DNA of 1,983 nt, taken from Escherichia coli (GTDB lineage: Bacteria > Pseudomonadota > Gammaproteobacteria > Enterobacterales > Enterobacteriaceae). The stretch lies in assembly GCF_044324875.1 (NCBI RefSeq), contig NZ_CP172192.1, one strand, 5' to 3'. Shown here one piece after another: positions 1-1,983 of this stretch. Each line of letters opens with the position of its first letter. The first letter of the stretch is position 1. A program made the position numbers and the translations under genes. Under the pieces are notes generated by a model. It ran no database searches. It saw only the letters and a list, made by a program, of their open reading frames with translations, and had not been told where the DNA came from.

Positions 1-33
1 TGCGCGGTCCGACATTCCCACATCCTGTCCCGA
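1..33 (-). repeat. Inverted-repeat arm, proximal 33 bp (reverse complement of 289..321), truncated by the window start
   Basis: Exact 33/33 reverse-complement match to 289..321. Together with 1933..1983 it reconstitutes the full 84-bp arm if the window ends are joined. Confidence 0.95.
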
Positions 34-288
34 AAATTCCCGCCGTTTCTCGGTTTTTTGAGCGTCGCAGACCGCACGACAAACGAAACGAAGTGTAGTT
101 TGTATGAGTGCGCACTTCGTGAGATTCCCCGACTGCCAGTTTGTCGATCGCGCGGAACAGCTGTGGCACGAAAACGGCAGAATGATTTGCTGTCCGGTTG
201 CCAGAACTGCGCGCTTACGTGGAGGGCGGCGCGGCGCAAAAAACTGCCGACATTGCGCCAGTGTTCCGGTGACACAAACCCGCAGAAA

Positions 289-372
289 TCGGGACAGGAT
301 GTGGGAATGTCGGACCGCGCACGCTCGCTCAGACATTCCCCACCTGGTCAGGGCTTCGCCCCGACACCCCGC
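289..372 (+). repeat. 84-bp arm of a perfect inverted repeat (internal copy)
   Basis: Compared by eye base by base: reverse complement of 322..372 equals 1933..1983 and reverse complement of 289..321 equals 1..33, with no mismatches. Identity stops at 373 versus 1932 and at 288 versus 34. Confidence 0.95.
301..343. other. Nested stem-loop inside the repeat arm
   Basis: GTGGGAATGTC (301..311) pairs with GACATTCCCCAC (332..343), one extra C as a bulge, around a 20-nt GC-rich loop. The same structure exists in the other arm across the window junction (1964..1973 with 11..19). Confidence 0.6.
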
Positions 373-513
373 CAACGCCTCACGGCACGCGAAAAAATTC
401 CGCGTACCGCTCACCGTTCTTGAACTCGTCAAACAGAAAATCGCGGGGCCCCGCGCCTCCGGCGTGGGTTCCGATTTTGTGATTGACGACGGCACGGGGA
501 AAACGCTGGGTAT

Positions 514-568
514 GGTGGTTGGTGTCACGGAGTGAGGCCAACCACCTGCAAGACGGTTTTTTGTTGTT
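514..568 (+). other. Stem-loop followed by a T-rich tract
   Basis: GGTGGTTGG (514..522) pairs perfectly with CCAACCACC (538..546) around a 15-nt loop. TTTTTTGTTGTT (557..568) follows after a 10-nt gap. Confidence 0.3.
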
Positions 569-601
569 CACAAAATTGGGGTGAAAGTCTGTGGATGAGA
601 T

Positions 602-634
602 GGGTGTAAGTGGGTGGGGTTGGGAGGTTTTGGG
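602..634 (+). other. G-run cluster fitting a G-quadruplex motif
   Basis: GGG 612..614, GGGG 616..619, GGG 622..624, GGG 632..634 with loops of 1, 2 and 7 nt, plus extra G-runs at 578..581 and 602..604, within a GT-rich stretch 577..640. Confidence 0.3.
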
Positions 635-675
635 TTACTGAAAATCCAGCTCAAAATTCAAGCAAATCTCGCGCG

Positions 676-711
676 CGATCCTTGTATTTATACTTAAGGG
701 ATAACTCTAGG
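676..711 (+). promoter_or_regulatory. AT-rich island with a second nick-site-like motif; alternative dso or rep promoter region
   Basis: CTTGTATTTATACTTAAGGGATAACTCTAGG (681..711) is the only AT-rich stretch in an otherwise GC-rich window. CTTGTAT resembles CTTGATA, and TAAGGGATAACT resembles the TAAGGGTAACT that I recall downstream of the pC194 nick; that recollection is unverified. Confidence 0.2.
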
Positions 712-843
712 ATTCAAATTGGCCTCCAGCCCTTGTCCCGCAAGGCTTGAGGGCACATTTGCTCCGAAATGGGTTTAGAAGTATTCTGTCGGAAGTGGTC
801 GCGTTAAAAGCGACCCCCGCAACGAGGGCAATCGTTCGGGGGC

Positions 844-907
844 GTGACCACCTGTAGAAATTCGAATTAGTGACACGACAACACAGGTGATATGGCAATG
901 ATAACAC
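844..907 (+). promoter_or_regulatory. Candidate double-strand origin (dso) and nick region of the rolling-circle replicon
   Basis: 7-bp stem CACCTGT (849..855) with ACAGGTG (883..889) enclosing a loop that holds the perfect 10-bp palindrome AATTCGAATT (859..868). Immediately 3' are tandem TGATAT (888..893) and TGATAA (899..904), then ATAACAC (901..907). pC194-class origins are nicked at G/A within CTTGATA, and the phiX174 origin, as I recall it, contains TGATATTAATAACAC. Lies 40 to 100 bp upstream of the rep start. Assignment is by motif resemblance only. Confidence 0.35.
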
Positions 908-943
908 GTCAGATGAGCCATCGCCCACAATCGGGTGGTGCGC

Positions 944-1933
944 ATGAAAAACCCTAAACTCCAGTACCTCACTGATTATTCCCCCTCTGACGCGCCCTGG
1001 GACGCACACAGAAGCGTTTCTGACGACGTGGGAGGGATTTACCTGCTTGCGGCCGAATATGAGCGCTACGGGGCTCGTATGGCCTCCTGTGGCGGTTTAC
1101 TGCGTTTCGGGTGGTCTACCCTCAAGGAAACCGGAGAAACGCGTCTGAGGCTGCGTGAGGCGCATTTCTGCCGTGTCCGGCACTGTCCTGTCTGCCAGTG
1201 GAGGCGCTCCCTGATGTGGCAAGCCCGTTTCTACCAGTCCCTGCCGCGTATCGTGGCGGATTACCCTGATGCCCGCTGGATGTTCCTGACCCTGACCGTG
1301 CGCAACTGTGCGATTGGGGAACTGGGCGAGATGCTGAACCGGATGAATGCAGCTTTTCAGCGTATGAAGGTTCGCAAGGAGTTCCTGCCTGTTCAGGGCT
1401 GGATCCGCACAACGGAAGTTACCCGCGGCAGCGACGGCAGCGCGCATCCCCACTTCCACACCCTGATGATGGTGCCGCCCTCAATGCTATCTGGTGACGG
1501 GTACGTAAAACATGCTCGCTGGGTTGAACTCTGGCGGGAGTGCCTGCGGGTCAGTTACAACCCGAATGTTGATGTCCGGGCAGTAAAACCCCGTAAGCCA
1601 AAGGATGGCGAGTCCTTAGCCTGCGCGACCGCTGAACTGGTGCGCGGCGCAGTGGCCGAAACCCTGAAATATTCCACGAAGCCGGCTGACATGGTGGCCG
1701 ATCCTGAATGGTTCCTCGAACTGACCCGCCAGACGCACAAGCGCCGCTTTGTGGCGACCGGCGGCGCACTCAAAGACGTGCTGAAACTCGATCAGGAAAC
1801 CGACGCCGACATGGTGATCGGGGATGATATTTCCGAGGGCGACGATGACGGTTCACGCATCGCGTTCGAGTGGAAAACCGAGGTCAGAAAGTACCGTCGC
1901 TCACCGACGAAAGATAAAACTGAATCAGGCTAG
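944..1933 (+). CDS. rep: Rolling-circle replication initiator protein, HUH endonuclease of the pC194/pUB110 (Rep_1) class
   Basis: 332-codon ORF 935..1933 in the supplied track. Translation carries motif I FLTLT (nt 1283..1297), motif II HPHFH (nt 1445..1459, the HUH metal-binding motif) and motif III ETLKYSTK with Glu four residues before Tyr (Tyr codon 1670..1672), the arrangement known for pC194 RepA. Start is ambiguous: GTG at 935 or 938, or ATG at 944 preceded by GGTGG (934..938) at Shine-Dalgarno spacing; I chose 944. Stop TAG 1931..1933. Confidence 0.9.
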   Translation: MKNPKLQYLTDYSPSDAPWDAHRSVSDDVGGIYLLAAEYERYGARMASCGGLLRFGWSTLKETGETRLRLREAHFCRVRHCPVCQWRRSLMWQARFYQSLPRIVADYPDARWMFLTLTVRNCAIGELGEMLNRMNAAFQRMKVRKEFLPVQGWIRTTEVTRGSDGSAHPHFHTLMMVPPSMLSGDGYVKHARWVELWRECLRVSYNPNVDVRAVKPRKPKDGESLACATAELVRGAVAETLKYSTKPADMVADPEWFLELTRQTHKRRFVATGGALKDVLKLDQETDADMVIGDDISEGDDDGSRIAFEWKTEVRKYRRSPTKDKTESG

Positions 1934-1983
1934 CGGGGTGTCGGGGCGAAGCCCTGACCAGGTGGGGAATGTCTGAGCGAGCG
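1933..1983 (-). repeat. Inverted-repeat arm, distal 51 bp (reverse complement of 322..372), truncated by the window end
   Basis: Exact 51/51 reverse-complement match to 322..372. Begins at the last base of the rep stop codon. Confidence 0.95.

Follow-up and report, generated by a model that had tools for sequence, protein, structure and literature searches.

Reportedly, the plasmid pB is among the small Salmonella Enteritidis plasmids that Gregorova et al. 2004 (Can J Microbiol 50:107) called 'rolling-circle-like'. That paper appears in the reference list of PMC5841774. The near-identical plasmid pBuzz of E. coli 838B has been presented as cryptic, of the rolling-circle kind, and equipped with two origins of transfer (oriTs) in inverse orientation (Moran & Hall, Plasmid 2019;101:10-19, as related in PMC9282650 and PMC11389934). 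Reportedly, a B/O conjugative plasmid in the same cell provides the relaxase in trans and mobilises pBuzz (PMC9282650, PMC11389934), with high efficiency according to PMC9282650; PMC11389934 adds that pBuzz took its oriT from the conjugative plasmid p838B-R. Two putative oriTs are attributed to pBuzz-like plasmids in PMC7448864 and PMC8765060. Here we describe a stretch of 1,983 nucleotides of E. coli DNA (NCBI RefSeq assembly GCF_044324875.1, contig NZ_CP172192.1), referred to as the window throughout. The window is a complete 1983-bp circular cryptic plasmid, identical with pB of S. Enteritidis and belonging to the pBuzz/ColpVC family. We are highly confident that it is a rolling-circle plasmid of the pB/pBuzz family with a Rep_1 initiator and two inverted oriTs of the I-complex, mobilisable in trans. 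The plasmid is already known; it was sequenced around 2003-2004, and a functional study of its paired oriTs, which are copies from large conjugative plasmids, followed in 2019. The family can be regarded as a textbook minimal 'oriT-only' hitcher, borrowing the relaxase of large I-complex resistance plasmids.

Identity and circularity of the plasmid

The window is a rotation, with 0 mismatches, of two independently deposited records of 1983 bp each. One is NC_005002.1 (pB, circular, complete), in which window position 1 corresponds to record position 1124 and from which the window differs only in the point of linearisation; the other is NZ_AP027664.1 (E. coli pPSJ-42_12), in which it corresponds to position 840. 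An 80-mer spanning the 1983|1 junction lies internally in both records, at 1084 in NC_005002.1 and at 800 in NZ_AP027664.1. In a megablast search of the plasmid collection, the window aligned over its whole length with 1.98-kb records that had been entered as complete and circular. The start coordinate of rep differs in CP063730.1, CP093146.1, NZ_AP039438.1 and others, which indicates that independent near-identical records were linearised at different points. A preliminary description of the window, made from the sequence alone, had proposed that its ends join into a complete circle of about 1983 bp, and both the 0-mismatch rotations and the internal junction in independent records bear this out.

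Over its whole length the window shares 99.5% nucleotide identity with pBuzz (NZ_MF156267.1). The two plasmids share the single rep, a pair of inverted oriTs whose 84-bp units are identical, and the direction in which the segment between the oriTs runs; they differ in length (1982 bp in pBuzz, 1983 bp in the window), in a few substitutions and in one 1-nt indel. The proposal in the preliminary description of a minimal cryptic rolling-circle plasmid agrees with what PMC9282650 and PMC11389934 relate of pBuzz. Identity to pVCM01 (NC_019127.1), the ColpVC reference of PlasmidFinder and MOB-suite, amounts to 98.6-99.8% in the collinear parts. Its rep is 99.9% identical and it carries the same perfect 84-bp oriT pair, whereas its 255-bp inter-oriT segment lies in the opposite orientation. 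All close matches are typed ColpVC as replicon by MOB-suite, and at least 80% of the plasmid is found in 45 of 5,426 complete E. coli genomes. Reasoning from the raw sequence alone had rightly arrived at a circular rolling-circle replicon, which gives the plasmid value as a clean positive control; the identity of its repeat as a pair of I-complex oriTs had been missed.

Table 1. Features of the 1983-bp plasmid in coordinates of the window; origins of replication are candidates.
Feature	Position	Strand	Description
oriT copy 1, outer part	1933..1983	+	Reverse complement of 322..372 without mismatch; can be aligned with the oriT region upstream of nikA in I-complex plasmids
oriT copy 1, contents of outer part			8-bp inverted repeat GTCGGGGC/GCCCTGAC and left NikA-type repeat arm; runs over the junction into 1..33
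oriT copy 1, inner part	1..33	+	Right NikA-type arm GACATTCCC and nick region CACATCCTG|TCCCGA; perfect reverse complement of 289..321
Inter-oriT segment	34..288		255 bp, between the predicted nick sites; would be the leading region for transfer from either oriT
oriT copy 2, complete 84-bp unit	289..372	-	Nick region on the - strand
oriT copy 2, NikA-type arms	303-320 / 323-340		Perfect core GGGAATGTC ... GACATTCCC
oriT copy 2, 8-bp repeat	347-354 / 358-365
Candidate single-strand origin (sso)	373..670	+	Structured, non-coding; hairpins at about 427-488 and 514-546
Candidate double-strand origin (dso)	671..705	+	Rep nick region; block GCGCGCGATCCTTGTATTTATACTTAAGGGATAAC, upstream of rep
rep	944..1933	+	329 amino acids; Rep_1 (pC194/pUB110-class) HUH rolling-circle initiator
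Open reading frame	104..535	+	143 amino acids; 'hypothetical protein' in some records; shorter form 299..535

The 84-bp arms as I-complex origins of transfer

By direct string comparison, 1933..1983 followed by 1..33 is the exact reverse complement of 289..372 in 84 of 84 nt, just as the preliminary description had it. A repeat search of the window recovers the same structure in two parts, with 322-372 perfectly paired to 1933-1983 (51 nt) and 1-33 to 289-321 (33 nt). A perfect inverted repeat of 84 nt is expected by chance about (1983^2/2) x 4^-84 times in 1983 nt of random sequence, roughly 1e-44, and therefore the repeat is not random. The point at which the unit is split, 321/322, is the centre of an imperfect internal palindrome (303-320 / 323-340, 83%). 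Transposon-like terminal inverted repeats at 2-19 / 1965-1982 (83%) were considered as a candidate feature and rejected; they are the NikA-type repeat arms of one oriT, separated by the linearisation point.

Searched by itself, the 84-bp unit hits about 1,900 further plasmid records, for the most part large conjugative plasmids from E. coli, Salmonella, Shigella and Klebsiella; of the 2273 records with a match, 1663 have been typed as conjugative. Four of the matching plasmids were inspected (pO113, pND11_107, pWS1933D and pSH267-2). All have a MOBP relaxase and a mating pair formation system of type MPF_I, with IncI-gamma/K1 or K2/Z replicons; in each of the four, 13-15 bp separate the end of the match from the beginning of mobA/nikA, which is followed by the gene for the NikB relaxase. 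Window positions 286..371 are about 95% identical to pO113 (NC_007365.1) and pSH267-2. More generally, the units of the window share about 95% identity with the K/Z type and about 80% with the IncI1 type.

Alignment resolves the unit into three elements. The first is the nick region, invariant as CGGGACAGGATGTG (on the other strand CACATCCTG|TCCCG) in six of six aligned sequences, including the four inspected plasmids; its bases CATCCTGT are present in both arms of the window. The second is a central inverted repeat, the arms of which vary by plasmid type and remain complementary to each other: it reads GGGAATGTC...GACATTCCC in the window and in K/Z-type plasmids, as against GCAATTGTAATA...TATTACAATTGC in the IncI1 type. 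The third is the conserved GGTCAGGGCTTCGCCCCGACACCCC hairpin region with its 8-bp repeat. A nick site, a NikA-binding repeat and an 8-bp repeat are what we take to be the anatomy of the R64 oriT. Judged by this homology, each 84-bp arm is an oriT of the I-complex (IncK/B/O/Z type), and the central repeat would be the site bound by NikA. The likeness to I-complex oriTs (R64/IncI1; IncK, B/O and Z, for instance pO113 and pSH267-2) extends over the nick region, the central repeat and the hairpin. The large I-complex plasmids, in contrast, carry one copy of the oriT, adjoining nikA-nikB, while the window carries two inverted copies and has neither nikA, nikB nor other transfer genes. Neither a relaxase nor an accessory gene is found in the window plasmid, in which rep is the only conserved open reading frame (ORF). 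Because the 84-bp units of the window and of pBuzz are identical, mobilisation by an I-complex (B/O) plasmid, as reported for pBuzz, very probably holds for the window plasmid as well.

The geometry of transfer can be deduced from the window sequence and the known polarity of conjugative transfer. We infer the exact nick positions by analogy with the nic sites of the R64/RP4 type, presumably YATCCTG|Y. In copy 1 the predicted nick falls on the + strand between G27 and T28 (27|28), and in copy 2 on the - strand between 295 and 294. The two predicted nicks are thus on opposite strands, and both would face the 255-bp segment 34..288. Since the oriTs are inverted and it is the 5' end that the relaxase takes into the recipient, export of either strand should be possible, with 34..288 always entering first.

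The I-complex oriT unit was also seen in 1.5-kb plasmids unrelated to the window plasmid, namely NZ_CP130069.1 (1538 bp, Col(MG828), at 377..474) and NZ_CP103520.1 (1551 bp), with identities of 94% and 81%, respectively, and a replicon type unlike ColpVC. This points to independent capture of the unit by other minimal plasmids.

Conservation of the paired oriTs in the ColpVC family

Thirteen close and five more distant ColpVC relatives were rotated and compared. The two units are 100% identical to each other in eight records, among them pB, pBuzz, pVCM01, p11-0230.2, pMS10860D and p2015AM-0511_6, and 97.6% identical in pEC332_09. In pRGI01198, pR15.2267_p1.9k and pNMEC-O75E they are only 77-82% identical; here the flanks are the same and the central NikA-type repeat alone has been swapped, with the variant at either position. 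The resulting pairs combine the K type with a GTAATCGTATAA variant, or the K type with an IncI1-type repeat, the latter in pNMEC-O75E. Two different oriT variants on one molecule may widen the range of helper plasmids. Pairs of another type, with GGACAAGATGTG nick regions and 73-79% identity within the pair, occur in three more distant relatives of 1.79-2.06 kb found in E. coli, Klebsiella and Citrobacter. L/M-like oriTs are described for a 2,058-bp relative in PMC7448864.

Paired inverted oriT-like units are present in all sampled ColpVC relatives except one. The exception is the common pSH14-028_2 type (2.09 kb, 2094 bp), which has one full unit of the IncI1 type; at the second position no more than the hairpin portion is left. 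The partial unit is preceded by a G/T-rich insert, GTGTGGGTTGTTTTGTGGGGTGT...GGGTTAAAGTGTGGG (rotated coordinates about 260-520), which may resemble F-like oriT sequence. The paired inverted layout is thus kept in most of the family despite the divergence of the copies, which excludes an assembly artefact. The same pattern argues that the possession of two oriTs is selected for.

Orientation of the inter-oriT segment

Orientation-specific queries of the plasmid collection found 10 records with segment 34..288 oriented as in the window and 3 with the segment inverted (pVCM01, p11-0230.2 and pSTEC2018_553-j). A further inverted record, pEC332_09, came from the E. coli genome collection. The rep genes of inverted forms are 99.9%, 99.8% and 91.1% identical to that of the window, and those of window-type forms 90.6% to 100%. 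Orientation is therefore independent of rep identity, so that the segment must have been flipped or exchanged more than once; the pattern suggests recurrent inversion across the 84-bp arms. The segment also stays 98.8-100% identical where rep is only 90.6-91.1% identical, for instance in p11-0230.2 and pNMEC-O75E. Either the segment is more constrained than rep, or it has been exchanged as a module.

These observations bear on another reading, in which the inverted oriTs, besides their role in transfer, act as crossover sites that invert 34..288 and so maintain two isomers with some functional difference. Inversion could proceed through homologous recombination over the 84-bp arms or through relaxase-mediated strand exchange. 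Both orientations do occur at 99.8-99.9% rep identity (pB versus pVCM01 and pEC332_09) and again in the 91% lineage (p11-0230.2), and the higher conservation of the segment relative to rep fits the idea. Nevertheless, the counts are small (10 against 3 records in the plasmid collection, plus pEC332_09), some assemblers can misassign orientation across an 84-bp repeat, and inversion may be a neutral by-product of inverted repeats. Moreover, nothing in the segment points to a function: no ORF in it is conserved among the relatives, it has no Rfam match, and its folding as single-stranded DNA is no better than that of shuffled sequences (z -0.96 and -0.12 for the two strands), which also gives no support for the segment as an sso. 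On balance we consider this reading unlikely. A more specific version, that the inverted oriT pair forms a recurrently flipping module whose core, better conserved than rep and expected to lead each transfer, carries a strand-specific function such as a priming or establishment signal, orientation then mattering for replication or transfer, might be entertained as a speculation of slightly lower probability still.

The Rep initiator and candidate replication origins

The product of rep matches Pfam Rep_1 (PF01446) from position 2 to position 252 of a model of 253, with E=1.1e-84. In the pB record the gene is labelled 'protein rep' (WP_011117490.1; record 84..1073, equal to window 944..1933). 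The protein contains the HUH motif HPHFH at amino acids 168-172 and the sequence A-E-T-L-K-Y, which provides E239-x-x-K-Y243. In the placing of metal-binding and catalytic residues these motifs would match initiators of the pC194 class, with a spacing that we believe to be that of E210/Y214 in RepA of pC194. With its Rep_1 initiator and its HUH and catalytic tyrosine motifs, the plasmid resembles pC194, pUB110 and pKYM of the Rep_1 family. That the sole gene of the window encodes a pC194-class Rep, as already recognised in the preliminary description, is confirmed by the Rep_1 match, by the HUH and E-x-x-K-Y motifs, and by the finding that rep is the only ORF conserved across all relatives compared.

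Upstream of rep, the core of the block assigned as candidate dso (about 679-704, TCCTTGTATTTATACTTAAGGGATAA) is identical in all sampled ColpVC relatives, and it is also present in a 2.1-kb plasmid of the Col(BS512) type, with which rep shares no more than 71% DNA identity. The flanking GCGCGCGA part of the block shows single-position variation. Around CCTTGTATTTATACTTAAGGGATAA, a 43-bp stretch is 95% identical between ColpVC and the Col(BS512) type (NZ_CP076316.1, 718..760), consistent with a shared Rep nick region. The Col(BS512)-type 2.1-kb E. coli plasmids thus share this short block upstream of rep, and differ from the window in their diverged rep, in being typed non-mobilizable and in having no match to the oriT units. 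They are, we believe, pKYM-like. Conservation in this pattern makes block 671-705 the likely Rep nick region. The block may also resemble the nick region of pC194 (CTTG|ATA...AAGGGTAAC).

Part of this region was also encountered outside small plasmids. The 150-kb IncF conjugative plasmid p2005FS026 (NZ_OK236218.1) contains, at 2277..3201 near IS26, a non-coding pB/pJ-like fragment without rep that corresponds to window 62..693. It holds an oriT, the inter-oriT segment and the structured region, and stops inside the candidate dso block, after window position 693. The end of the fragment may mark a Rep-nick-related junction.

Between oriT copy 2 and the candidate dso, positions 373-670 fold as single-stranded DNA more stably than 200 shuffled sequences (z-score -2.99 on the + strand, -2.93 on the - strand), and include an inverted repeat at 514-528/532-546. 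Judged by its folding, this region is a candidate sso. No Rfam family matches the window at E<=1, and hence no known antisense or countertranscribed RNA (ctRNA) family.

The presence of structured DNA raises the alternative that the 84-bp arms themselves are mainly a replication element, in which they form a long hairpin in the displaced strand that serves as sso, rather than origins of transfer. The arms would indeed pair as an 84-bp stem in a single strand, and rolling-circle plasmids generally prime the lagging strand from structured single-stranded DNA. Against this, the arms are homologous over their full length to the nikA-proximal oriT of I-complex plasmids, the invariant nick region included. 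The arms of relatives, at 73-82% identity, are too diverged for a perfect stem, and each has the full oriT anatomy. A better-structured region lies elsewhere, at 373-670, and mobilisation of pBuzz is reported in PMC9282650. A main role of the arms in replication is accordingly very improbable.

A model for replication and transfer

Taken as a rolling-circle plasmid with two inverted I-complex oriTs, the window plasmid could function as follows. Rep would nick the conserved origin at about 671-705, just upstream of rep, and drive rolling-circle replication, which we infer for this plasmid by analogy with pC194, pUB110 and pKYM. The displaced strand would be made duplex again from the structured region at about 373-670. 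For transfer, NikA and NikB would come from a co-resident I-complex plasmid ('relaxase-in-trans'); bound to the central repeat, they would cut at CATCCTG|T, and one strand would be exported. Depending on the oriT used (nick at + 27|28 or at - 295|294), either strand could leave, with segment 34..288 leading each time.

No result contradicts this model, but it has gaps. No NCBIfam model matches Rep, and a PDB sequence search found no relative of Rep with a solved structure. A promoter scan found no sigma-70 consensus promoter for rep. In addition, some relatives are typed non-mobilizable by MOB-suite, a result that probably reflects oriT types missing from the MOB-suite database.

That the inverted repeat is instead an artefact of assembly or linearisation (chimeric or hairpin), with no real 1983-bp circle carrying two copies, is next to impossible: the cut of the window exactly at the centre of an imperfect palindrome could resemble an assembler breakpoint, and the 1593-bp pLH50-c-i is without the segment between the outer hairpins of both arms, but the architecture recurs, with varied start points, in more than 10 records deposited independently and differing in laboratory, host and year, relatives keep two inverted units at 73-82% identity, which repeat collapse would not give, and pBuzz, with the same layout, was studied experimentally according to PMC9282650. 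The permuted independent records and the diverged repeat pairs of relatives likewise rule out a linear molecule.

The record of pLH50-c-i (NZ_CP100509.1, 1593 bp) merits description in its own right. Its rep is 99.9% identical to that of the window, and it is without 390 bp that comprise both nick regions together with 34..288. The two arms are joined through their outer hairpin halves as …GTCGGGGCGAAGCCCTGAC|ACCCCGCC…. The record represents either a mis-assembly or a derivative that arose by snap-back deletion and no longer has oriT function.

Minor features

Terminator-like sites in the window are no commoner than in shuffled sequences. A second gene at 104..535, or in its shorter form at 299..535, was considered and rejected, since it is unconserved in relatives and overlaps an oriT. 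RefSeq carries the 'hypothetical protein' accessions WP_148689360.1, WP_000263637.1 and WP_153227304.1 for these ORFs. The longer form crosses oriT copy 2, both forms start inside or traverse the oriT nick region, and in pVCM01, pRGI01198, pSH14-028_2 and the L/M-type relatives ORF 104..535 is interrupted or missing. Judged from this comparison, probably neither form is a gene, and both are probably annotation artefacts.

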